64,000 bases of DNA from Chloroflexota bacterium. GTDB lineage: Bacteria > Chloroflexota > Dehalococcoidia > UBA2247 > RBG-13-53-26. This document shows, one piece after another, positions 5,843-49,926 of this stretch (position 1 is its first letter; each line of letters starts with the position of its first letter). Location of the stretch: the NCBI GenBank assembly GCA_016875915.1, contig VGOM01000007.1, positions 1 through 64,000 of the forward strand. The letters are read 5' to 3'. The notes below the pieces were generated by a model that ran no database searches, was not told where the DNA came from, and saw nothing but the letters and a program-made list of their open reading frames with translations. The position numbers and the translations under genes were made by a program.

Positions 5843-6559
5843 ATGCCTGTGCTCTTCTTCGTAGTCCTGATCTGCGTGCTGATCGCCGGGGGCATCGCCT
5901 TCGCCATCTGGCGCCGCCGGCTGAGAGAGAAACGCATGATGGCGCTGGCCATGTGGGCTGAGTCCAACGGCTTCAGCTTCCGGGCCACGGTGGACAGGGG
6001 CATGCACTGGCGCTTCAGGGACTTCCGTTGCCTTCAGCGGGGCGACGACCGCTACGGCTACAACATCATGGAGGGAACGGCAGGCAAACGGCCGGTGTGC
6101 GCCTTCGACTACCACTATGAGACCCACTCATCGGGCAGCAAGGGACAGCGGCAGACGCACCACCACCACATGTCAGCCCTGGTCATGGAATCCGGCCTGC
6201 CGCTCAAACCGTTGTTCATCCGTCCCGAGGGCTTCCTCGACCAGGTGGCGGAGTTCGTCGGATTCGACGACATCGACTTCGAGTCGGCGGAGTTCAGCAA
6301 GCGATTCCTGGTCAAGTCGCCCGACCGCCGCTGGGCCTATGACGTGCTGCACCAGAAGACGATGGAGTTGATGCTGGCTCATCCCAACTTCACCCTGGAC
6401 TTCCAGGGGAGCCAGATCATGGCCTACCGCGACAACAAGACCCTCGCTCCGGGGGAGTTCAGCGCAGCCCTGAAGCTGATCGCGGTGATCCTGGACAACC
6501 TGCCCGAATCCGTGGTCCGGGAGCAGAGGAGCGTCAATACGGAGGTCCGACAAACATGA
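5843..6559 (+). CDS. Membrane-anchored protein, DUF3137-like LemA partner
   Basis: N-terminal TM helix plus a soluble domain with an internal His run. Its stop overlaps the lemA start. DUF3137 is recalled from memory and unverified. Confidence 0.5.
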   Translation: MPVLFFVVLICVLIAGGIAFAIWRRRLREKRMMALAMWAESNGFSFRATVDRGMHWRFRDFRCLQRGDDRYGYNIMEGTAGKRPVCAFDYHYETHSSGSKGQRQTHHHHMSALVMESGLPLKPLFIRPEGFLDQVAEFVGFDDIDFESAEFSKRFLVKSPDRRWAYDVLHQKTMELMLAHPNFTLDFQGSQIMAYRDNKTLAPGEFSAALKLIAVILDNLPESVVREQRSVNTEVRQT

Positions 6560-7116
6560 ATCCAATAGCCATCGCCGTCCTGGCCGTTGTGGTCCTGCTG
6601 ATACTTTGGGTGGCCTTCATGTACAACTCGCTGATCCGGGGCCGCAATCACTGCGACGAAGCGTGGTCCAACATCGACACCGAACTCAAGCGGCGCTACG
6701 ACCTGATCCCCAACCTGGTGAACGCGGTCAAGGGATACGCCGCGCACGAGAGGGAGGTGATGGAGCGGGTGACCCAGGCCCGGACCAACGCCATAGCCAG
6801 CCAGGGCTCGCCGGCCTCGCAGGCTAGGGACGAGAACGTGCTGGTGGACAGCCTGCGCCGTCTGCTGGCGGTGGTCGAGAAGTACCCCGACCTGAAGGCC
6901 AATCAGAACTTCCTGTCCCTGCAGGAGGAACTGGTCAACACCGAAGACCGCATCCAGAGGGCGCGGCGGTTCTACAACGGCAATGTGCGGGACTACAACA
7001 ACCGCGTGGAGGTCCTGCCCTCCAACATCGTGGCGAAGTGCTTCGGCCTGAAGAAACGGGAGTTCTTCGAGATCGAGGCCGCCGTGGAGCGGGCAGCACC
7101 TGCGGTGAAGATCTGA
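6556..7116 (+). CDS. lemA: LemA family protein
   Basis: N-terminal TM helix plus YNSLIxxRNxCDEAWSNIDTELKRRYDLIPNLV and EKYPDLKANQNF motifs typical of LemA. Confidence 0.85.
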   Translation: MNPIAIAVLAVVVLLILWVAFMYNSLIRGRNHCDEAWSNIDTELKRRYDLIPNLVNAVKGYAAHEREVMERVTQARTNAIASQGSPASQARDENVLVDSLRRLLAVVEKYPDLKANQNFLSLQEELVNTEDRIQRARRFYNGNVRDYNNRVEVLPSNIVAKCFGLKKREFFEIEAAVERAAPAVKI

Positions 7117-21953: not shown

Positions 21954-22367
21954 TTGAATCAGGAAGAGCAGATACTGGATACTTACCGTATAGTGGCCGT
22001 GGTGGGTCTGTCGCCGGATGCAGAACGCCCCAGCTTCAGGGTGGCGTCATATCTCAAGGCACAGGGCTACAGGATCATCCCGGTGAACCCGAGGCTCAGT
22101 CAGGTACTGGGTGAGACCTGCTATCCGGAGTTGACCTCGATACCGGAGCCGGTGGAGGTGGTGGACATCTTCCGGCGGGCCGAGGAAGCGCCGGCGATCG
22201 TGGACCAGGCCATCGCCGTCGGGGCGAGGGCGGTCTGGATGCAGGAGGGAATAGTGAACGAGGCCGCAGCCCGGAAGGCCAGGGAGGCCGGGCTGCTGGT
22301 GGTGATGGACAGGTGCATGCGCAAAGAGCATCTGAAAGCAACAGAGAAGAAGTCAGGAGGTAGGTGA
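21954..22367 (+). CDS. CoA-binding domain protein (YccU/YneT-like)
   Basis: IVAVVGLSPDAERPSFRVASYLKAQGYRIIPVNP and VWMQEGI motifs. Confidence 0.75.
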   Translation: MNQEEQILDTYRIVAVVGLSPDAERPSFRVASYLKAQGYRIIPVNPRLSQVLGETCYPELTSIPEPVEVVDIFRRAEEAPAIVDQAIAVGARAVWMQEGIVNEAAARKAREAGLLVVMDRCMRKEHLKATEKKSGGR

Positions 22368-22870
22368 TGTCGAAGACCAATGACAACGTGGCAGCAGCAT
22401 TCGCCGGGGAGAGTCAGGCAAACCGGAAGTACCTCTTCTTTGCGGAGAAGGCCGAGGAAGAGGGGCACAAGCAGATAGCCCGGCTGTTCCGGGCCACCGC
22501 GGAGGCGGAGACGGTCCACGCGCGGAACCACCTCAAGGTTCTGCAGGGCATTATGTCAACTTCTGACAACCTCAAGACGGCCATCGGCGGTGAGAACCAC
22601 GAGTTCACGGAGATGTATCCCGGGTTCATCAAGCAGGCCGAGACCGAGAACCAGGCCAAGGCCAAGAACAGCTTCGACCTGGCCAACAGGGTGGAGGAGC
22701 TCCATCACGGCCTGTTCCAGGCCGCCCTGAGCAAGCTGGAGAAGAAGCAGTCCATGGAGGAGCAGCCCTTCTACGTGTGCCAGATCTGCGGCAACACGGT
22801 GGAGGGCAAGGCCCCCGACAAGTGCCCGGTGTGCGGCGCGCCGGCGAAGATGTTCAAGCGCGTCGACTAG
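22364..22870 (+). CDS. rbr: Rubrerythrin
   Basis: Diiron four-helix ExxH motifs plus a C-terminal rubredoxin-like CQICGN...CPVCG. Confidence 0.9.
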   Translation: MMSKTNDNVAAAFAGESQANRKYLFFAEKAEEEGHKQIARLFRATAEAETVHARNHLKVLQGIMSTSDNLKTAIGGENHEFTEMYPGFIKQAETENQAKAKNSFDLANRVEELHHGLFQAALSKLEKKQSMEEQPFYVCQICGNTVEGKAPDKCPVCGAPAKMFKRVD

Positions 22871-22938
22871 CTGCGCCGTTCCCGAAGCAATCGAACACCT
22901 GATGTCAGCGGCTCCCTGTCCGGAGCCGGGCGGAGGCT

Positions 22939-23517
22939 GTGATGAAGATCATGGGCATCATGGGCAGTCCACGGATAGGGGGCAACACCGAACTGCTCCT
23001 CGACGAAGCCCTGCGGGCGGCGGGAGTCCAGGGGGCGGAGACGGAGAAGATCGCCGTGGGCAGGCTGAAGATATCCCCCTGCAAGGAGGACTACGCCTGC
23101 CTCAAGGACGGCACCTGCGACATCAGGGACGCCATGGATGACATCTACCCCAAGCTGCTCGGCGCGGACGCCGTGATCATCGCCTCACCGATCTTCTTCT
23201 ACGGACTGACCAGTCAGGCCAAGGCGCTGATCGACCGCTGCCAGGCGCTGTGGGCCAGGAAGTACGTCCTGAAGCAGAAGCCGCACGGTTCGGGCAGGAG
23301 AGGCGCCCTCATAGCCGTCGGGGCCACCAAGGGAGAGAAGCTCTTCGAGGGATCGATACTGACGGCGAAGTACTTCTTCCAGACCATCGGCGTTGACTAT
23401 GCCGGGGAGTTGCTCATCCGGGGCATAGACAAGAAGGGCGAGATACGGGAGCATCCCACGGCGCTGAGGGATGCGGCGGAACTGGGCAGGCGGTTGGCGC
23501 TGCCAAGGCCGGAGTGA
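22939..23517 (+). CDS. NADPH-dependent FMN reductase / flavodoxin-like flavoprotein (Isf-like)
   Basis: MGSPRIGGNTE flavodoxin-like FMN loop. Cys-rich CKEDYACLKDGTC segment near the N-terminus. Confidence 0.7.
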   Translation: MMKIMGIMGSPRIGGNTELLLDEALRAAGVQGAETEKIAVGRLKISPCKEDYACLKDGTCDIRDAMDDIYPKLLGADAVIIASPIFFYGLTSQAKALIDRCQALWARKYVLKQKPHGSGRRGALIAVGATKGEKLFEGSILTAKYFFQTIGVDYAGELLIRGIDKKGEIREHPTALRDAAELGRRLALPRPE

Positions 23518-23603
23518 AGTCCATCCCGTCTCCGCCGGCGACACAGCCGAGCCGCTGAAGGAGTCATGGTGGCCCCATCCGACAGGTGAGGAGGAGTCAG
23601 GCG

Positions 23604-24134
23604 ATGTCGAAGCAGATCCAGAGAATGGCCGGCGCCCTGGAGACGGCCCTGGGGATGGAGATCGAGGGCAAGGAGTTCTATCAGAAGACAGGGCGGAAGA
23701 GCGTCAGTCCACTGGTTCAGGAACTGTTCAAACACTTGGCGGCGCAGGAGGATGTGCACTACCGCAGGGTGAAGGAGGTTCACGCGGCGGTCAAATCCGG
23801 GAACAGATGGCCGGAGAAGGAGTCCACCTTCAAGCGCCCCAGGAGCCTGCAGCGGGTCTTCAGGGAGGCCATAGACAAGATGGGCCCTCATTTCCAGGCT
23901 GCCTCCGCCGAGATTGACGCCCTCAAGGTGGCCATGGACATGGAGGACAAGAGCTGCAGCTTCTATCGAAATCGCGAGGAGGAGGCGGGGTCGGCGGCCG
24001 AGAAGGCCTTCTACAAGGCTCTGATGGGCGAGGAGAGGGTGCACTACCTCACACTGCAGTCCTCCCATGAGTACCTCTCCGATCCGGAGGGCTGGTTCAC
24101 CACGAAGGAGCGGTGGAGCCTGGACGGGATGTAG
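23604..24134 (+). CDS. Ferritin-like diiron protein (rubrerythrin family, no rubredoxin domain)
   Basis: Two ExxH half-sites (AQEDVHYRRV, EERVHYLTLQ) in a four-helix-bundle-length protein. Start taken at MSKQIQ. Confidence 0.6.
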   Translation: MSKQIQRMAGALETALGMEIEGKEFYQKTGRKSVSPLVQELFKHLAAQEDVHYRRVKEVHAAVKSGNRWPEKESTFKRPRSLQRVFREAIDKMGPHFQAASAEIDALKVAMDMEDKSCSFYRNREEEAGSAAEKAFYKALMGEERVHYLTLQSSHEYLSDPEGWFTTKERWSLDGM

Positions 24135-24222
24135 CCCCGGCCCTCGCCAGGCCCGGGTGCTGGTCTGGGTGGGGACGCGGGTATATAATCTTCTCTGCTC
24201 CGCGGAGCCGTCCTGAACGTCA

Positions 24223-24921
24223 ATGGCCATCGAAGTCGCGCTGCTGAAGTCGATACCGTACTTCCTGGGTTTGAGCACAGCGGAGCTCGAAGCCATCAGG
24301 AAGTACGTCTTCGAGCAGGCCGTGGGAAAGAACGACATGATCCTCATGGAGGGGGACCCGGCCAATGCGGTCTACTTCGTGGTCTCAGGGGCGGTGAAGG
24401 TCTTCAAGACGTCGGTTGAAGGCAAGGAGCAGATCCTGTGCATCCTCAGGCCGGGCGAGTCTTTCAATGACGTTGCCGTGTTCGACGGCGGCCCCAATCC
24501 GGCCAGCGCCATAGCCATGACCCCGGTGCTCCTCTACGGGATAAACAGGGCCAACGTGGAGACCATCCTCAGGGACTACCCCAACCTGGCCGCCAACGTG
24601 ATCAGGATCCTCTCCAAGAAGGTGCGCCACTTCGTGTCGCTGGTGGAGGACCTGTCGTTCCGGCACGTCACCGACAGATTGGCCAAGCTTCTTCTGGAGT
24701 ACGCCACGGACCACGGCACCGTCGCCGGGGAGCCCGGGGCGCGCCCGAGGCTGACCCAGCAGGAGATGGCCGCCGTGGTGGGCACGGCCCGGGAGGTGGT
24801 GGGCCGGTCTCTCAAGGCGCTGGAGGAAGAAGGGGCCATCAGGATGGACCGGCACCGGATCGTCATCGTCAACAAGAAGCGTCTGGAGCAGATGAGCGGG
24901 GTCGGGGCCGGGTCCGGCTAG
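24223..24921 (+). CDS. Crp/Fnr family transcriptional regulator
   Basis: cNMP-binding beta-roll region followed by a C-terminal HTH (REVVGRSLKALEEEG). No N-terminal FNR-type Cys cluster. Confidence 0.8.
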   Translation: MAIEVALLKSIPYFLGLSTAELEAIRKYVFEQAVGKNDMILMEGDPANAVYFVVSGAVKVFKTSVEGKEQILCILRPGESFNDVAVFDGGPNPASAIAMTPVLLYGINRANVETILRDYPNLAANVIRILSKKVRHFVSLVEDLSFRHVTDRLAKLLLEYATDHGTVAGEPGARPRLTQQEMAAVVGTAREVVGRSLKALEEEGAIRMDRHRIVIVNKKRLEQMSGVGAGSG

Positions 24922-24997
24922 ATGAGATGGAGACAAAGGTTACATACGTTCGGCCAGAGAGTGTGCCACTATCGCTGTTGGGCAAGCGAGGTTTGAG

Positions 24998-25225
24998 ATG
25001 CTGGTGAAGCCTATCCTGGATGAGGCGCTGTGCAATGGATGCGGGCTGTGTGTGGACGTCTGCCGGTGCGGGGCCCTGGTCCTGGTGAAGAAGATCATCA
25101 AGATCATCGAGGCAGAAGACTGCGGCTACTGCACCCAGTGCGAGCTGGTTTGCCCCACCGGGGCGATCCAGTGCCCATTCGAGATAGTGATCGAGGAAAC
25201 CATCGAGATAGGCCCTGAGGAGTAG
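24998..25225 (+). CDS. 2x[4Fe-4S] ferredoxin
   Basis: 75 aa with CNGCGLCVDVC and CGYCTQCELVCP motifs. Confidence 0.85.
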   Translation: MLVKPILDEALCNGCGLCVDVCRCGALVLVKKIIKIIEAEDCGYCTQCELVCPTGAIQCPFEIVIEETIEIGPEE

Positions 25226-33905: not shown

Positions 33906-34145
33906 CTACTTCCGCCTGCTTCTGGCCGACGACCCAGACCGGCGGGGCGATCCGGCCCTGGCCGCCTCAAGCATGGTCTCCCACTTGCCTTCGCTCGGCA
34001 GCGGACGGCCGGCCTGCTGCGGGCTGTAGTGGTCGAGATACATCAGATTGCCGCACTGGACACAGTTCTCGTACCACTCACCGAGGTAACTGCCCATCAT
34101 GAGTATGCCTCCGCACTTGGGGCACTTCCGCGAACTGAGACCCAT
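33906..34145 (-). CDS. Small zinc-ribbon protein (80 aa), locus B partner
   Basis: Start taken at MGLSSRKCPKCGG. The CxxC-x19-CVQCGNLMYLDHY pattern echoes CQSCGTQKQFHNY in 45090..45368. Confidence 0.5.
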   Translation of the reverse strand: MGLSSRKCPKCGGILMMGSYLGEWYENCVQCGNLMYLDHYSPQQAGRPLPSEGKWETMLEAARAGSPRRSGSSARSRRK

Positions 34146-34213: not shown

Positions 34214-34231
34214 CTGTGACCGCGGTCACAG
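34214..34231. promoter_or_regulatory. Perfect 18-bp palindrome CTGTGACCGCGGTCACAG (candidate operator)
   Basis: Exact dyad symmetry about 70-85 bp upstream of the zinc-ribbon gene start. Confidence 0.45.
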
Positions 34232-34729: not shown

Positions 34730-34984
34730 TCAGCCGTAGCTGAACTGCTGCTCCGGCTCGGATCTCCTCACCCGCCGGTGAGTCACTATGGATGGCACGT
34801 GCATACAGCCGATAAGGCGGTCGGCGAGGTCCTGGCAATCACTCATGTAACGGCAGTTGCGGCAGTCGTCGTTCGTCCTGCTGCAGGCGAAGGCCCAGCG
34901 TTCAATTAGCTTGTCGTCGTCCTTCTTGGGATACCACCTGGCCCATCTCTGTCGTCCACTGGATTTCTCTCCCATTACGCGCAT
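34730..34984 (-). CDS. Small 5-Cys protein, family member B (84 aa)
   Basis: Start at MRVMGEK with GGAGGAG RBS. RQRWARWYPKKDDDKLIERWAFACSRTNDDCRNCRYMSDCQDLADRLIGCM aligns with 45374..45622 at identical Cys positions 34/41/44/50/60. Confidence 0.65.
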   Translation of the reverse strand: MRVMGEKSSGRQRWARWYPKKDDDKLIERWAFACSRTNDDCRNCRYMSDCQDLADRLIGCMHVPSIVTHRRVRRSEPEQQFSYG

Positions 34985-35111: not shown

Positions 35112-35139
35112 TGTTATACTTTTACCAGTTCAAGTATAA
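35112..35139. promoter_or_regulatory. 9-bp inverted repeat GTTATACTT-N10-AAGTATAAC (candidate GntR-type operator)
   Basis: Perfect inverted repeat about 25-50 bp upstream of the GntR-PBP regulator ATG, in the divergent intergenic region. Confidence 0.4.
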
Positions 35140-35163
35140 CAATATCCAGCGATCGGCACCGGC

Positions 35164-36360
35164 ATGGCAGCACGCAAGACAACCGCCCAAACCCCGCCTG
35201 AGGGGAAGTCAACGGCCATTCTCCTCGGCGACACCGCTCACTCCCCGCTCTTCACCCAGATAGTGGCACAGGTGAGGCAACTGGTAGCCACTGGCAGGCT
35301 GAAGCCAGGCGAACGCTTGCCCACCGTCAGGGAATTGGCGGACACCCTCGGGGTCAGCCCCGGCACAGTGGTCAGGGCCTATCTCGATCTGGAGAAGCAG
35401 GGGGTTGTCCAGTCCAGGCGAGGGGCGGGCACGTTCGTCTCCGCCAGTGTCGGACGTCCCGGAGCGTCTGCGCTGCGCAGGGGCCAGCTCTCCAACATAG
35501 TGAGCGGCAGCATCCTGGAAGCCCTGACTCTGGGCTTTGAGCCCGATGAAGTGGAGGCGGCCTTCTCGGTGCACCTGGCCCGCTGGCGCGAGGAGCGACA
35601 GCGGCTAGCAGCCACACCACCGAAGAGAGGCAGGAACGGGAACAAGACGATTGCCATTGTCGCCAGCCATGACCTGGCGCTCAACCTTCTGGTGAGCCAT
35701 CTCAAACAGCGCGATCCCCGGACTCGGGTAGAGGTGACCTATGCCGGAAGCCTGGGCAGCCTGATCGCCCTGCAGGGCGGAAGGGCCGACATAGCCGGCA
35801 TCCACCTCCTGGATGGTGAGACCGGGGAATACAACTGCCCCTACGTGAAGCACGTCCTCCCCAACCAGGAGGTGGCCGTAGTGCACCTCGCCTACAGAGT
35901 GCAGGGCATGATGTTCGCCGCGGGCAACCCCAAGCGGATCAAGGGACTGGAGGACCTGAAGCGTCCCGATGTCAGGATGCTCAACCGCCAGAAGGGCTCG
36001 GGGACCCGGGTACTGCTGGACTTCCAGTTGCAGCAACTGGGGATAGCGCCGCGTGACGTTCAGGGATACGAAACAGAGGTGGACACCCATCTGGCTGTGG
36101 CCGACGGCGTGGCCCGGGGAGAGGCAGACGTGGGCATGGGCATCGAGGCGGCCGCCAGAGCCTGCGGGGCCGACTTCCTGCCACTGTTCAGGGAGAGATA
36201 CGACCTGATCATCCCGATGGAGACCTACAAGAGCAGGCGGCTGTCCCATCTCCTGGAGATCGTAGCCAGCGAGGATTTCAGAAGGGTGGTGGCCGAGACC
36301 GGGGGCTATGACACCTCACAGACCGGGGCGACCACCTTCTGCAGATACGAGAAGAACTAG
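35164..36360 (+). CDS. GntR-family HTH regulator fused to a periplasmic-binding-protein-like (tungstate/molybdate-binding-like) domain
   Basis: N-terminal winged HTH (LPTVRELADTLGVSPGTVVRAYLDLE), C-terminal PBP type-2-like domain. Sits immediately upstream of tupABC. Confidence 0.75.
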   Translation: MAARKTTAQTPPEGKSTAILLGDTAHSPLFTQIVAQVRQLVATGRLKPGERLPTVRELADTLGVSPGTVVRAYLDLEKQGVVQSRRGAGTFVSASVGRPGASALRRGQLSNIVSGSILEALTLGFEPDEVEAAFSVHLARWREERQRLAATPPKRGRNGNKTIAIVASHDLALNLLVSHLKQRDPRTRVEVTYAGSLGSLIALQGGRADIAGIHLLDGETGEYNCPYVKHVLPNQEVAVVHLAYRVQGMMFAAGNPKRIKGLEDLKRPDVRMLNRQKGSGTRVLLDFQLQQLGIAPRDVQGYETEVDTHLAVADGVARGEADVGMGIEAAARACGADFLPLFRERYDLIIPMETYKSRRLSHLLEIVASEDFRRVVAETGGYDTSQTGATTFCRYEKN

Positions 36361-36566
36361 GCACTCCGAGCCCTGACCCCTAGGGGCGGTGAGCCTACGG
36401 GGCAGCGGCCGGCAGGGTATCGCGGGAAACGGCGATGCCTCCCTCAGCTTGGAAAGGAGTGTATGGCTAGAAGGGCAGGCCCGGAATGCCGGGCGCCACC
36501 GGGTACGGATTGATGTCTTTGATGCGATCGGCCCCATGTTTATGTAAATAAAGGACAGAAGGATCA

Positions 36567-44931: not shown

Positions 44932-45089
44932 GACGCTGGCTAGATTCTAGGGTCGGGCCCCCCCGATGTCAATAAGGCCTGAGAACGAAGTGAGCGTGGA
45001 GCGGCGGGGGGCATCTGGCGACAAAAGTCGCATACAAGGATCACCTCTTACTCTAGACTGGGTCCGATCAGCGTAAGGGGGTAAGCAAG

Positions 45090-45368
45090 ATGGTGACCAG
45101 AAGCGCGGTAGCAGACGAAGAGACGGTAGCGGAGGAGAGGGGGGCCGAGTGTCAACACCACTGGGTGATTGATGCGGCAGCGGGGCCGGTGAGCAGCGGG
45201 AGGTGTCAGAGCTGCGGGACCCAGAAGCAGTTCCACAACTACCTGCCTGACTGCCTGGCGAACAAAGACAGGGAGACATACGAAGGGTGGCTGGCGAAGC
45301 ACAGCCAGAATGAGAGAAAGAGGTCCAGAGCGAAGCGGGGCATCGTGTCTCTTCTTGACGAGGACTAG
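45090..45368 (+). CDS. Small zinc-ribbon-like protein (92 aa), locus A partner
   Basis: AAGGGGGT RBS. CQHH...CQSCGTQKQFHNY. Only 5 nt upstream of the 5-Cys gene. Confidence 0.5.
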   Translation: MVTRSAVADEETVAEERGAECQHHWVIDAAAGPVSSGRCQSCGTQKQFHNYLPDCLANKDRETYEGWLAKHSQNERKRSRAKRGIVSLLDED

Positions 45369-45373
45369 GGGAG

Positions 45374-45622
45374 ATGGGGATGGCGGATGATATCCAGGGT
45401 GTGAGGCGGCGATGGGCCAGGTGGTATCCCAAGAAGCAGGATGACACCATAATTGAGCGCTGGGCCCGGGCTTGTAGTAGAATTAATAACGACTGTCGGG
45501 ACTGCGGTTTCGGCGAGGAGTGTCAGGACCTTGCCGACCGTCTCATTGTATGCATGACGGCATTACCGGGCAGAGGCGGACGCCGACAGAGAGGGCAGGA
45601 TCCCGGTCAAGGCAGCAACTGA
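45374..45622 (+). CDS. Small 5-Cys protein, family member A (82 aa)
   Basis: RRRWARWYPKKQDDTIIERWARACSRINNDCRDCGFGEECQDLADRLIVCM. Paralog of 34730..34984. Immediately upstream of dnaJ-clpB. Confidence 0.65.
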   Translation: MGMADDIQGVRRRWARWYPKKQDDTIIERWARACSRINNDCRDCGFGEECQDLADRLIVCMTALPGRGGRRQRGQDPGQGSN

Positions 45623-45644: not shown

Positions 45645-46658
45645 ATGGACTACAAGGACTACTACAAGGTCCTGGGCGCGGACAAGAAGGCCACCGCCAA
45701 GGAGATCAAGCACGTCTACCGCAAGCTGGCCCGCCAGCACCACCCGGACGTGAATCCAGGCAACAAGCAGGCCGAGGCGCGATTCAAGGAGATCAACGAG
45801 GCCTATGAGGTGCTGGGGGACGAAGAGAAGCGGAAGAAATACGACGAACTGGGCGCCAACTGGAAGCACTACGAGCAGTGGCAGCGGGCAGGCGGCGAAG
45901 CCAGCGGACAACCCTTTGACTGGAGCCAGTATGGCTTCGGGGCGGGGCCGGGCAGGGGCGGCCGCTACCAGACCCGGACGGTGTCCGAAGAGGAACTGAA
46001 GGACCTCTTCGGCGATTCCGGGCCATTCTCCAGCTTCTTCTACACCTTCTTCGGCGGCGGAGAGCAGCCGGAGATGGGCGGCAGACGGCACTTCAGGACG
46101 ACGTCGCGGCAGCACCGGGGCGAGGACCTGGAGCAGCCGGTAGAGATAAGCCTGGAGGAGGCCTTCAGCGGCACCAACCGCATCCTGCAGATGCAGGACG
46201 CCCACGGCAGAGTCCGCCGACTCGAAGCCAAGATCCCCGCCGGGGTCCAGGAAGGCTCCAGGGTCCGCCTGGCCGGCCAGGGGGGACACGGGGCGGGCGG
46301 GGGGCCGGGCGGCGACCTGTACCTGGTGGTCCACATCCTGCCCCATCATCTCTTTGAACGAAAAGAGGATGATCTTCACCTCAAGCTGGGCGTGCCCCTG
46401 ATCACCGCGGTGCTGGGAGGTGAGGTCAGCGTGCCCACGCTGAACGGCAGGGCAATAATGCTGAAGATCCCGCCCGAGACACAGAACGGGCGGGTGTTCC
46501 GGCTCCGGGGCAAGGGCCTTCCCAAGCTGGCAGCCTCTCCGCAGAAGCACGGGGACCTGCTGGCTGAGGTGAGGGTGGTCCTGCCCGACTGCCTCTCCGA
46601 CAAAGAGCGCAAGCTCTTCGAGGAACTGGCTAAGCTGCGTCCCGCAGACGGCGAGTAG
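45645..46658 (+). CDS. cbpA: DnaJ-class co-chaperone lacking the zinc-finger domain (CbpA-like)
   Basis: J domain (DYYKVLG...HPD), G/F-rich linker, two C-terminal beta-sandwich domains, no CxxCxGxG repeats. Confidence 0.8.
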   Translation: MDYKDYYKVLGADKKATAKEIKHVYRKLARQHHPDVNPGNKQAEARFKEINEAYEVLGDEEKRKKYDELGANWKHYEQWQRAGGEASGQPFDWSQYGFGAGPGRGGRYQTRTVSEEELKDLFGDSGPFSSFFYTFFGGGEQPEMGGRRHFRTTSRQHRGEDLEQPVEISLEEAFSGTNRILQMQDAHGRVRRLEAKIPAGVQEGSRVRLAGQGGHGAGGGPGGDLYLVVHILPHHLFERKEDDLHLKLGVPLITAVLGGEVSVPTLNGRAIMLKIPPETQNGRVFRLRGKGLPKLAASPQKHGDLLAEVRVVLPDCLSDKERKLFEELAKLRPADGE

Positions 46659-46719: not shown

Positions 46720-49362
46720 ATGAGCATGAACAAGTTCACCGAAAAGGCGCAGGAAGCCATCGTCTCGGCACAGCAGATCGCCGAGAGGAGCAATCATACC
46801 CAGCTTGACGTGGAACACCTGCTGGCGGCCTTGCTGGACCAGTCGGAAGGCATAGCGCCTCAGGTACTGCGGAAGCTGGGGGCTGACCAGGCGCAGGTCA
46901 AGGTCGAGCTAGCCAGCGAGATGGACCGCCTCCCCAAGGGGTATGGCGCGGTGCAACTGTCGATGTCCCCGCGCTTCAAACGGGTCCTGGATACGGCCCA
47001 GATCGAGGCGGGAAGGCTCAAGGATGAGTACGTCAGCACCGAGCACCTGCTGATCGCCCTTGTCGACGATCAGGACAGGGGAGCGGCCAGCCGCATCCTG
47101 AAGAGCCACGGGGTGACCAAGGACCGGATCTATCAGGTGCTGACCAGCATCAGGGGGACGCAGCGGGTGACCGACCCCAATCCCGAAGGCAAGTACCAGC
47201 CGCTGGAGAAGTACGGCCGGGACCTGACCGAGATGGCCCGCAAGGACAAACTGGACCCGGTGATCGGCCGGGACAAGGAGATCCGCCGGGTGATCCAGGT
47301 CCTGTCGCGCCGCACCAAGAACAACCCTGTTCTGATCGGCGAACCGGGCGTGGGCAAGACGGCCATCGTCGAAGGTCTGGCACAGCGGATAGTCAAGGGG
47401 GATGTGCCTGAGGGGCTGAAGAACAAGCGCCTGGTGGTGCTGGATCTGGGAGCCATCGTGGCCGGCTCGAAGTACCGCGGGGAGTTCGAGGAACGGCTCA
47501 AGGCGGTGCTGAAGGAGGTCCAGGAGGCCGAAGGCAGAATCCTCCTCTTCATCGATGAGCTGCACACCGTGGTGGGGGCCGGCGCCGCCGAGGGGGCCAT
47601 GGACGCCTCCAACATGCTCAAGCCGATGCTGGCCCGGGGAGAGCTGCACTGCATCGGGGCCACCACGCTGAACGAATACCGGAAGCACATTGAGAAGGAC
47701 GCCGCTCTGGAGCGCCGTTTCCAGCCGGTGATGGTCAACGAGCCAACGGTGGAGGACACTATCAGCATCCTGCGCGGACTGAAGGAACGATATGAGGTTC
47801 ACCACGGGGTGAGGATCAAGGACTCGGCGCTGGTAGCGGCAGCGGTGCTGTCACACCGCTACATCAGCGACCGCTTCCTGCCGGACAAGGCCATCGACCT
47901 GGTGGACGAGGCGGCCAGCAGACTGCGCATGGAGATCGACAGCGTGCCGGCGGAACTGGATGAAGTTCAAAGACGGACGATGCAACTGGAGATCGAGCGC
48001 CAGGCACTGAAGAAGGAGAGCGACGACACATCGAAGGAGCGCCTGGCGCACCTGGAGAAGGAGCTGGCCGACCTGAAGGAAGAGGGCAACCGGCTGAAGG
48101 CGCAGTGGCAGCAGGAGAAGGGGGCCATCCAGGGCATCCAGCAGATCAAGGAGCAGATCGAACAGGCCAAGCTGGAGGTGCAACAGGCGGAGCGGTCGGC
48201 CGACCTGGAGAAGGCGGCCCAACTGAAGTACGGCACCCTGGTGGAACTGGAGAGGCAACTCAGAGAGAAGGAATCCCATCTCACCGCGGCACAGGAGGGC
48301 CACACCATGCTGCAGCAGGAGGTGGGTGAAGAGGACATCGCCGAAGTGGTCAGTCACTGGACAGGGGTGCCGGTGAGCCGGCTGATGGAGGGCGAGATCC
48401 AGAAGCTGCTGAAGATGGAGGAGCGCCTGCACGTCCGGGTGGTGGGCCAGGATGAGGCCATCAACGCGGTGAGCAGCGCAATCAGACGGGCCAGGGCGGG
48501 GCTGCAGGACCCCAACCGGCCTCTGGGCAGCTTCATCTTCCTGGGGCCGACGGGGGTAGGCAAGACCGAGCTGGCCCGGGCGCTGGCCGAGTTCCTCTTC
48601 GACGACGAGCAGGCCATGATCCGCCTGGATATGTCCGAGTACATGGAGAAGCACACGGTGTCGCGGCTGATCGGCGCGCCGCCGGGGTATATCGGCTATG
48701 ACGAAGGGGGCCAGCTCACTGAAGCGGTGCGGCGGCGGCCCTACTCGGTGGTGCTGTTCGACGAGATCGAGAAGGCGCACCCCGACGTGTTCAATACGCT
48801 TCTCCAGATCCTCGACGACGGCCGGCTCACGGACGGCCATGGCCGGACGGTCGACTTCAAGAACACCGTGGTGATCATGACCAGCAACCTGGGCGGTCAC
48901 CTGTTCAGCGAGCCGGGCCTGGCCGACACGGACGAGGTCCGCCACCGGGTGATGGAGACGCTCCGGGCCCAGTTCCGGCCGGAGTTCCTCAACAGAATCG
49001 ACGAGGTAATCATCTTCCACTCGCTGGACCGCGACCAGATCAAGGAGATCGTGGACATCCAGATGAGGGGATTGAAGCAGCGGCTCGATGGCCGGCACAT
49101 GAGCTTTGAGCTGACGGATGCGGCCAAGGAACTGGTGGTGGAACAGGGATACGATCCCACCTACGGCGCCAGGCCTTTGAGGAGAACCATCCAGCGCCGC
49201 ATCCTGGACCCGCTGGCCCTGAGGGTTCTCGACGGCACCTTCAGCGACGGCGCCAGGATAGTGGTCGACGCCAGGGATGGGGAGATCGTCTTCCGTGAGG
49301 AGGACGGGGGGCACGAACACAAACAGAAATCATCGCACAAGAAGTCCGCGCGGTCCGGATAG
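46720..49362 (+). CDS. clpB: ATP-dependent disaggregase ClpB
   Basis: 880 aa: Clp-N repeats, two AAA+ modules ([16 protein letters not shown]), long M-domain coiled coil in NBD1. Confidence 0.95.
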
Positions 49363-49404: not shown

Positions 49405-49926
49405 ATGAATGTAGTACTGTACACCACGCGCACCTGACCCTACTGCTACCAGGTGAAGGAGTTTCTTTCACAGAAGGGCATCGCCTACCAGGAGCGTGAC
49501 GTCTCGGTGGACCGGGAAGCGGCCCGGGAGATGATTCAGAAGACGGGGCAGCGGGGCGTGCCGGTGACCACGGTGGACGGCGAGGCGGTGATCGGCTTCG
49601 ACCGGGCCAGGCTGGAGCAGCTGCTGGCCAAGCAGGGTGGGGGGCAGCATCCCTCCATGGGTCTGCAGGTGGCCGACGCCAGCAAGATCGCCCAGAAAGT
49701 GGGCGCCGTGCCGGTCTTCGGAGCCCTGGTGGGCGGCGTCAGACCGGGCTCGGCCGGTGAGAAGGCGGGGCTGGAGCAGGGCGATGTGATCACCGAGGTC
49801 AACCTGCGCCGGATCAGCAACGCCGATGATCTGGAGAAGGCCGTGGCTGGACTGTCGGCGGGCAGCCGGGCGGCCATAGTCTTCATGCGGGGGCAGAAGG
49901 AGATCCGGGCGGAGGTCACCCTCTAG
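49405..49926 (+). CDS. Candidate selenoprotein: glutaredoxin-like domain (U-P-Y-C active site, in-frame TGA at 49435-49437) fused to a PDZ domain
   Basis: AAGGAGGA RBS 5 nt before the ATG at 49405. Read-through gives MNVVLYTTRT-U-PYCYQVKEFLSQKGIAYQERDVS...GVPVTTVDGEAVIGFDRARLEQLL, a complete Grx fold. The track ORF from 49453 would lack beta1 and the CxxC motif. Confidence 0.6.
49453..49471 (+). ncRNA. Candidate bacterial SECIS stem-loop (GUGAAGG-AGUUU-CUUUCAC)
   Basis: 7-bp stem (one G-U) with a 5-nt loop containing GUU, starting 16 nt 3' of the in-frame UGA. Confidence 0.35.

Follow-up and report, generated by a model that had tools for sequence, protein, structure and literature searches.

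RsrA-type anti-sigma factors of the ZAS class (encoded in sigR-rsrA) and McsA (encoded in ctsR-mcsA-mcsB-clpC) are small, Cys-rich zinc proteins that are co-transcribed from a stress promoter they help control, and a thiol reductase of the same regulon returns their oxidized thiols to the reduced state. The repressor genes hrcA and ctsR occupy the first position of chaperone operons, and CbpM of E. coli is a small protein co-transcribed with the class-B J-protein CbpA. WhiB-like (Wbl) proteins, which occur in Actinobacteria and phages, are ~80 aa long and have four invariant Cys residues, a helical core and a basic tail. At class II promoters, proteins of the CRP/FNR family activate transcription from a site that is classically centered at -41.5 (TTGAT-N4-ATCAA for FNR, TGTGA-N6-TCACA for CRP, dehaloboxes for CprK), and residues R180, E181 and R185 of E. 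coli CRP read G5 and G7 of TGTGA. Here we describe a locus in a Chloroflexota bacterium (GenBank assembly GCA_016875915.1, contig VGOM01000007.1, positions 1 to 64,000 of the forward strand; the whole 64,000-nt stretch is referred to as the window) in which two adjacent genes, ZnRA and Cys5A, encode small Cys/His-rich proteins of two undescribed families and stand at the promoter-proximal end of an operon with the order ZnR, Cys5, class-B DnaJ, ClpB and a glutaredoxin-PDZ fusion (Grx-PDZ) with a predicted selenocysteine. The components of the operon and its promoter are as follows (ZnRA, Cys5A and ClpB as given in the list of open reading frames, ORFs).

45017 to 45032 (core 45018 to 45031), no strand: operator palindrome gGCGAC-AAAA-GTCGCa, upstream of ZnRA
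45031 to 45036 and 45054 to 45059, forward strand: promoter core, consisting of a weak -35-like CATACA, a 17-nt spacer and the -10 box TAGACT
45090 to 45368, forward strand: ZnRA, a 92-aa predicted zinc-ribbon protein
45374 to 45622, forward strand: Cys5A, an 82-aa 4-Cys protein
45645 to 46658, forward strand: class-B (CbpA-like) J-protein, with Pfam domains DnaJ and DnaJ_C
46720 to 49362, forward strand: ClpB disaggregase
49405 to 49926, forward strand: Grx-PDZ, with Pfam domains Glutaredoxin and PDZ, the last gene of the operon

The two small reading frames lie as the initial annotation of this DNA had placed them, 5 nt apart and ahead of dnaJ-clpB. The 5-nt gap suggests that translation of ZnRA and Cys5A is coupled, and the true start of Cys5A may be the ATG at 45380. 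Only 22 nt separate Cys5A from the J-protein gene, which is co-transcribed with the pair and syntenic in the loci that share the layout of the window (type 1, below). The J-protein contains DnaJ and DnaJ_C domains and no Zn-finger domain in a Pfam scan, indicating that it is a class-B, CbpA-like protein; orthologs of ClpB (75-87% identity) occupy the same position as in the window. Orthologs of ZnRA and Cys5A are found in many assemblies at protein identities of 46-85%, and pairwise dN/dS values are 0.14-0.22 for ZnRA and 0.24 for Cys5A (range for both ORFs, 0.14-0.24), indicating that both are real genes under purifying selection. Base composition around the pair shows no anomaly.

Alignment of the DNA upstream of ZnR genes revealed a conserved element consisting of GCGAC-N4-GTCGC, ATACA, 17 nt and TAGAAT or a close variant. 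The window contains a single copy of the operator, even when one mismatch is allowed, and relaxed matching within the window yielded no excess of further copies over shuffled sequence, save for one palindrome upstream of a second zinc-ribbon ORF (ZnRB, described below). With the transcription start placed ~7 nt after the -10 box (a position that was inferred, not mapped), the center of the palindrome falls at approximately -41.5. An inverted repeat near -41.5, upstream of a -10 box, is the layout expected of a CRP/FNR target, as far as the inferred start site allows. A consensus sigma-70 scan identified no complete promoter on the ZnRA strand, where the -35 region is weak, and did identify the divergent pfk promoter (TTGACA-17-TAGAAT). 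We infer, with good support, that transcription of the operon starts at a promoter whose -35 region is weak and which has a (T/G)GCGAC-N4-GTCGCA site near -41.5. The operator is retained in 14 genome loci that were found through the protein and not through the DNA motif. It is present in every locus of types 1 and 3 and absent from type-2 pairs (types defined below), and a degenerate copy, GAGAC-AAAA-GTTGC-ATACA-17-TAAGAT, precedes nfu-Cys5 in L023 and L024.

The initial annotation had also reported no hrcA or hspR in view. This holds to the extent that neither a CIRCE or HAIR element (up to 3 mismatches) nor an HrcA homolog was found in the window; HspR itself was not searched for. An HrcA/HspR-type system was excluded on the same findings, with the same limit regarding HspR.

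The reach of this promoter element became apparent when we scanned metagenome contigs of the Joint Genome Institute (JGI) for GCGACWWWRGTCGCATACA, a pattern derived from ZnR loci, which matched at 107 loci. A TAnnnT box follows in 81 of the 104 loci where this could be tested, and in 74 of these the distance from ATACA is exactly 17 nt, indicating that most of the matches, many of which lie on low-GC contigs, are real promoters. The first gene after the operator is most often of the ZnR type (35 loci) or nfu (21 loci), followed by genes encoding FmdB-type zinc ribbons (5), rubrerythrin (4) and YgaP-like membrane proteins (3), and single cases include genes for a glutaredoxin, TusA, a flavin mononucleotide (FMN) reductase and a sigma-70-like protein. 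Among 27 ZnR-first loci with enough sequence, Cys5 comes next in 19, and the other 8 lead straight into grpE-dnaK-clpB, dnaK or Grx-PDZ. In related organisms this element stands ahead of nfu, rubrerythrin, glutaredoxin, TusA, FMN-reductase and FmdB-type genes as well as dnaK/grpE operons, and it therefore marks a combined regulon for redox, thiol, peroxide and Fe-S stress and for protein damage. A search of the literature for the operator sequence, or for a CRP stress regulon in Chloroflexi or Dehalococcoides, returned nothing relevant.

The window encodes a candidate operator-binding protein, which PDB and NCBIfam matches place in the CRP family and whose gene lies in a cluster (22364 to 25225) made up as follows:

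22364 to 22870, forward strand: rubrerythrin
22939 to 23517, forward strand: FMN reductase
23586 to 24134, forward strand: ferritin-like protein
24223 to 24921, forward strand: CRP-family transcription factor, candidate operator binder
24998 to 25225, forward strand: 75-aa ferredoxin of the 2x[4Fe-4S] type, directly after crp in a conserved crp-fdx unit

We clustered the ORFs neighboring the 107 operator loci and counted crp genes within 4 kb. A CRP/FNR-family gene is present in 16 of the 107, in one of two arrangements. In 10 loci crp lies upstream on the same strand, followed by the operator and ZnR, with a small ferredoxin gene intervening in five of them; in the remaining 6, crp is divergent from operator-nfu and the operator sits in the common intergenic region. 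Counting genome loci as well, crp and the operator are separated by the ferredoxin gene in L043, L053, L074, L087, L102, L010 and L019, and in L010 and L019 the crp-fdx unit is located just upstream of a ZnR-Cys5 pair. The CRP-family protein of the window is 69% identical to these operator-adjacent CRP proteins (metagenome loci, L010 and L019) and is regarded as their ortholog. Its recognition helix reads REVVGR, compared with RETVGR in E. coli CRP, such that R180, E181 and R185 are retained, and the operator half-site TGCGAC likewise retains both G positions (G5 and G7). Arg82 of E. coli CRP, which contacts cyclic AMP (cAMP), aligns with a Pro, suggesting that the effector of the window protein is probably not cAMP. 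On these grounds the palindrome is quite probably bound by the protein encoded at 24223 to 24921, whose targets would include the ZnRA-Cys5A-dnaJ-clpB-grx operon.

The neighborhood of the pair was surveyed using one genome per GTDB species. This survey yielded 25 related loci, all in metagenome-assembled genomes (MAGs) of Chloroflexota/Dehalococcoidia, nine of which carry two copies, and about 21 of the 25 have a ZnR-type gene immediately ahead of the 4-Cys gene, bearing out the view that the pair is a conserved module. The loci fall into the following arrangements:

Type 1, the layout of the window (L001, L002, L004-L008, L011, L013, L022): fba and pfk divergent, then ZnR, Cys5, DnaJ, ClpB and Grx-PDZ
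Type 2 (L009, L015-L018, L020, L021, L025): ZnR and Cys5 preceded by genes for a PAS histidine kinase and a NarL-type response regulator; chaperone genes are absent
Type 3: ZnR and Cys5, then DnaK (L012) or a 98-aa protein, Hsp20 and Lon (L019)
Solo Cys5: locus B of the window (below) and L003; in L023 and L024 the gene immediately ahead of it is an Nfu (NifU-C) gene

L014, truncated at its 5' end, is probably of type 2, and L010 has a type-3 promoter followed by metabolic genes. dnaK is also tied to the pair in L066, and ZnR alone precedes grpE-dnaK-clpB in L028. Since dnaJ-clpB, dnaK or hsp20-lon follow the pair in different lineages, its heat-shock association is independent of which chaperone gene follows; the linkage itself, which the initial annotation had noted for the window, is conserved.

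Several further features of these loci were observed. Seven of the type-2 pairs, which lack the palindrome (L009, L015-L018, L020, L021), share an imperfect hairpin, GGCCACCTCTTCG-NNN-CGAAGGGTGGACC, located ~25-55 nt upstream of the ZnR start codon and just ahead of the ribosome-binding site, that could be a regulatory structure of the 5' untranslated region. Short, GC-rich, hairpin-like intergenic repeats are present in L002, L006 and L007 (upstream of the operator) and in L009, L018, L020 and L025. They include GGTGGGTTACGC...CAACCCACC and a ~80-nt element beginning CAGCAGAGGTGGGGCC, and look like repetitive extragenic palindromic (REP) or miniature inverted-repeat transposable element (MITE)-type sequences. 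A protein of ~100 aa without a Pfam match recurs in the operons (L019 at 6388 to 6684, L034, L074, L087, L094, L110), for example after Grx-PDZ or ahead of Hsp20-Lon, and is a further undescribed member of the regulon.

Neither protein of the pair belongs to a family that we could recognize. Scans of ZnRA and Cys5A against Pfam, NCBIfam and PHROGs gave nothing above threshold (for Cys5A, Pfam was empty even at E≤1), and profiles of both families produced only chance-level matches to PDB sequences, in agreement with the initial annotation, which had recognized neither. ZnRA has the layout C21-x-H23-H24 ... C39-x2-C42, C55, W67 and a long basic C-terminal helix. Its family comprises 169 matches, none with a Pfam domain and all named only "hypothetical protein" at source, in which H23, W25, C39, C42, F48, N50, C55 and W67 do not vary and C21 is almost invariant. 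The AlphaFold2 model of ZnRA (mean pLDDT 67) contains strands at residues 25-27, 34-39 and 45-49 (pLDDT ~82-87) and helices at 52-56 and 61-89; with two Cys/His knuckles (C21-x-H23 and C39-x2-C42) on a three-stranded sheet, the model has the form of a generic zinc ribbon, and Zn binding is predicted. Comparison with solved folds returned generic zinc ribbons only, at E>0.3. Among named zinc-ribbon families, the NrdR N-terminal domain included, the best match was DUF5817, with 18.3 bits against a cutoff of 31 and hence below the Pfam gathering threshold; identity with FmdB was excluded by the lack of a Zn_ribbon_8 match. No informative fusions of ZnR were found, the longer matches being C-terminal extensions or, in one case, a read-through. 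ZnR proteins that occur without Cys5 have acidic tails and no basic helix.

The Cys5A family is far smaller. When 1.84 billion representative proteins were searched exhaustively with a HMMER profile (E≤1e-3), just 32 relatives were recovered. Four Cys residues are invariant, C34, C41, C44 and C50 (C-x6-C-x2-C-x5-C), as is Asp55, and D24, R29, W30, A33, Q51, L53 and L57 are nearly so. The strictly spaced 5-Cys pattern originally described therefore stands for four of its Cys residues and not for the fifth, C60, which distant members have lost and which L003 replaces with Ser. Cys5A is modeled by AlphaFold2 as a helix-loop-helix (helices 21-37 and 47-62, core pLDDT ~80) whose Cys residues occupy the loop and the ends of the helices; a basic N-terminal segment (RRRWARWYPKK) and a basic tail flank this core. 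Fold comparison of the predicted models matched neither ZnRA nor Cys5A to a solved structure and found no DNA-binding fold for either. P0042, P0043 and P0052 carry, fused to the 4-Cys domain, an N-terminal domain that resembles a winged helix (sub-threshold Pfam matches Trans_reg_C, E 9e-4, and MarR_2, E 1e-3). Contigs of P0052, P0043 and P0047 (L133-L141) place distant 4-Cys proteins within phage-like runs of co-directional small ORFs, and in six P0052 and P0043 loci (L133-L138) a Zn_ribbon_8 (FmdB-type) protein is encoded two genes downstream. No match indicating phage origin was found among INPHARED phage records or IMG/VR viral contigs.

The last gene of the operon starts at the ATG at 49405 and not at the GTG at 49453, and contains an in-frame TGA (49435 to 49437) at the first active-site position of the glutaredoxin domain (T-U-P-Y-C). 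This TGA is shared by 8 Grx-PDZ orthologs and by 3 stand-alone Grx genes, and Cys takes its place in 3 orthologs. A hairpin begins 15 nt past the TGA, with a folding z-score that is not significant. From the TGA, Grx-PDZ is predicted to be a selenoprotein, one that standard gene callers would miss or truncate. As a separate observation, many type-1 ZnR orthologs (e.g., L030, L061, L089, L112; L002, L006, L039) end in ...LSEI, ...LSEV or ...EEGV, resembling class I or class III PDZ-binding C-termini in an operon that encodes a PDZ protein; ZnRA of the window ends in ...LLDED, which falls outside this pattern.

What, then, does the pair do? The operator is CRP-type, adjoins crp in relatives, and the window has an ortholog of that crp; the pair is for these reasons most likely a member of the regulon and not its DNA-binding regulator. 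The proposal of a redox- or metal-sensing regulatory pair made in the initial annotation is accordingly upheld in part. The redox and metal context is real, with Nfu, rubrerythrin, glutaredoxin and the selenocysteine Grx-PDZ around the module, and so is the heat-shock context, but the regulator role is not borne out, given the CRP-type operator and two proteins with no DNA-binding fold found. We tentatively favor a role for the pair as an accessory sensor or adaptor. In the mechanism that we envisage, the cAMP-independent CRP-family activator (24223 to 24921) would bind the palindrome and switch on the operon, and the pair would form a thiol/metal redox-switch accessory module composed of a Zn ribbon and a four-Cys helical hairpin binding Zn or an Fe-S cluster. 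The metal center would be oxidized or lost under stress, its change would alter contact with the CRP factor, RNA polymerase or chaperones to give feedback or adaptor control, and the co-transcribed glutaredoxin would reset the pair. We infer this redox-switch role only weakly. A regulatory function would be in keeping with the promoter-proximal position of the pair, by analogy with hrcA and ctsR-mcsA in classical operons; with the tight linkage of crp, fdx, ZnR and Cys5 and the occurrence of type-2 pairs alone after a two-component system; and with the basic segments of both proteins and the fusion of the 4-Cys domain to a winged-helix-like domain. A thiol/metal switch is suggested by the four invariant Cys residues, with Cx2Cx5C spacing as in Wbl proteins and the FNR N-terminus, by Grx-PDZ as a constant operon partner that sometimes directly follows the pair, and by the co-transcription of Nfu with solo Cys5 in L023 and L024. 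A number of points weigh against this interpretation. The CRP-family protein is assigned to the operator only from gene adjacency, the geometry of the site and the logic of the recognition helix; overlap of the site with the -35 region would also suit a repressor; and the strongly conserved ATACA beside the palindrome is an unexplained feature that would not be expected of a class II promoter. The share of operator loci headed by ZnR is inflated, since the search pattern came from ZnR loci, and the winged-helix calls on P0042, P0043 and P0052 fall under Pfam thresholds. The predicted models of the two proteins offer no DNA-binding fold, the conserved ferredoxin neighbor could be the sensor of the CRP protein, making a second sensor less necessary, and most other members of the regulon are effectors, which favors an effector role for the pair as well.

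That the pair consists of such effectors, small metalloproteins acting on damaged proteins or cofactors, is possible, if on the whole unlikely. They might hand off or repair Zn or Fe-S centers together with Nfu, or provide a Cys-rich client-binder that replaces the Zn-finger domain missing from the class-B DnaJ. The promoter drives mostly effectors (Nfu, rubrerythrin, Grx, chaperones), Nfu and solo Cys5 share a transcript in L023 and L024, the adjacent DnaJ lacks its Zn-finger domain and no DNA-binding fold is predicted, all of which suit this explanation. ZnR is, however, also found without a neighboring DnaJ and heads chaperone-free operons (L074, L087, L094); the paralogous pairs of type 2 occur by themselves behind a two-component system; phage-like contigs encode fusions of the 4-Cys domain to one that resembles a DNA-binding domain; and a conserved core of 35-40 aa would make for a very small chaperone or carrier. 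We regard it as distinctly improbable that the pair is an autoregulated, DNA-binding heat-shock regulator that takes the place of hrcA and itself binds GCGAC-N4-GTCGC. Such a regulator would be hard to reconcile with the many operons that have the operator without ZnR and there have a divergent CRP gene, with the CRP-type sequence and spacing of the site and a window-encoded CRP protein with a matching recognition helix, with the acidic tails of ZnR proteins that lack Cys5 and the basic helix, with type-2 pairs that lack the operator, or with the failure to find a DNA-binding fold. In its favor, ZnR is the commonest first gene and in L028 is placed like hrcA in hrcA-grpE-dnaK, both proteins have basic segments, and HrcA, CIRCE and HAIR were not found in the window; zinc ribbons, moreover, can bind DNA, as does the N-terminal domain of NrdR. 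A mobile or phage-derived cassette, or a toxin-antitoxin-like pair that came to lie ahead of dnaJ-clpB by chance, is scarcely credible: two small adjacent genes are the usual toxin-antitoxin layout and distant 4-Cys relatives reside in phage-like small-ORF arrays, but synteny between pfk-fba and dnaJ-clpB is stable across many MAGs, the promoter is common to core stress genes, base composition is unremarkable, and neither the phage record collection nor the viral contigs contain a match. Roles other than those considered here have a slim chance of being correct.

The window contains a second 4-Cys gene at what we call locus B, near the second zinc-ribbon ORF mentioned above:

34730 to 34984, reverse strand: Cys5B, a solo paralog of the 4-Cys protein, without a ZnR partner and without the operator
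33906 to 34145, reverse strand: ZnRB, a C4 zinc-ribbon ORF outside the module, unrelated to ZnRA

Cys5B is the genuine paralog, with the same Cys positions, that it had been taken for (61% identity to Cys5A over 69 aa, E 1.7e-24), and the region upstream of it resembles that of L003. The suggestion that locus B holds a second pair has to be abandoned. No similarity between ZnRB and ZnRA could be detected, and in none of the 25 related loci does ZnRB accompany the 4-Cys gene; its proximity to Cys5B is probably a coincidence of position, judging from these sequences. Cys5B has no ZnR partner within the window, with only ~180 nt to the next gene; the second 4-Cys copy does have a ZnR-type partner in nine other MAGs. 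Upstream of ZnRB lies a perfect CRP-consensus palindrome, TGTGAC-CGCG-GTCACA (34215 to 34230), 21 nt before a TATCGT box, the same spacing as that between the main operator and its -10 box, and ZnRB may also be a target of a CRP-family protein. A 9-bp inverted repeat, GTTATACTT-N10-AAGTATAAC (35113 to 35140), is situated between Cys5B and a gene encoding a regulator with a GntR-type helix-turn-helix and a PBP-like domain (35164 to 36360), the last 9 nt of which are overlapped by a molybdenum/tungsten cofactor (Moco) riboswitch (36352 to 36475, forward strand, 74.7 bits).

Among described systems, the promoter conforms to the class II CRP/FNR type. The operator shares the 5-N4-5 geometry and the center at approximately -41.5 of class II CRP/FNR sites, together with a weak -35 region, a good -10 box and a regulator with a CRP-like R-E-x-x-G-R helix. 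It differs in that its half-site departs from the CRP consensus at two positions and has an unusual ATACA flank, the regulator of the window lacks both the cAMP-binding Arg and an FNR-type Cys cluster, and the regulon mixes oxidative-stress with chaperone genes. Like the hrcA and ctsR repressor genes, ZnR is the first gene of a chaperone operon; in contrast to the HrcA, HspR and CtsR systems, there is no homology and no CIRCE or HAIR element, and control looks positive and CRP-type. As with CbpM, a small protein is encoded beside a CbpA-like J-protein, but the pair lies upstream and not downstream, is Cys-rich and is also found without an adjacent J-protein; CbpM identity was rejected, no CbpM or MerR-type family being among the Pfam and NCBIfam matches of either protein. 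The resemblance to RsrA and McsA extends to a candidate thiol reductase from the same regulon, Grx-PDZ. The pair nevertheless has no sequence similarity to either, no adjacent sigma factor, kinase or CtsR, and a transcription factor of the CRP family. A ZAS anti-sigma factor was excluded, since H-x3-C-x2-C is absent from both sequences (as had been noted from the outset) and the neighbors are pfk and dnaJ, with no sigma gene.

The closest likeness of Cys5 is to Wbl proteins. In addition to a length of ~80 aa, four invariant Cys residues, a helical core and a basic tail, Cys5 has a C-x2-C-x5-C-x3-A stretch and a W-x2-A-x-C before the first Cys, is encoded in a stress regulon, and has stand-alone or fused copies in phage-like contigs. 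The first Cys of Cys5, however, lies 6 residues before the second, compared with ~20-30 in Wbl proteins, the G[VI]WGG turn is missing, only the last three Cys residues and the +4 Ala line up, and Cys5 belongs to Chloroflexota and is paired with a zinc-ribbon partner. Membership in the Wbl family was rejected on the basis of no Pfam Whib match, no PDB Wbl chain at E≤10 and an hhalign probability of 15% against WhiB1, WhiB and WhiB3. It is conceivable, if improbable, that the pair is a two-protein Chloroflexota counterpart of the WhiB-type redox cofactors, made of a zinc ribbon and a four-Cys Fe-S or Zn hairpin, acting on a cAMP-blind CRP activator or on RNA polymerase and coupling thiol or oxygen stress to the joint regulon of oxidative-stress and heat-shock genes. 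If so, the selenocysteine glutaredoxin of the operon would reset the pair, and the phage 4-Cys versions, some of them fused to a winged helix, would be host-takeover factors like the WhiB proteins of phages.

Neither family has been described before, and both are limited to Chloroflexota that are little studied and for the most part uncultured; the 4-Cys family is extremely rare, yet it is under purifying selection and stands at the head of the main disaggregase operon. An apparently undescribed regulon, in which a CRP-family factor would act at GCGAC-N4-GTCGC, would join DnaK, DnaJ, ClpB, Lon and Hsp20 with Nfu, rubrerythrin and glutaredoxin, and suggests a route of oxygen or thiol stress sensing in a window without an HrcA homolog, CIRCE or HAIR. 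If the pair does prove to be a redox-switch adaptor, it would represent a new solution to a problem that is met elsewhere by RsrA, WhiB proteins, Spx/YjbH and McsA.

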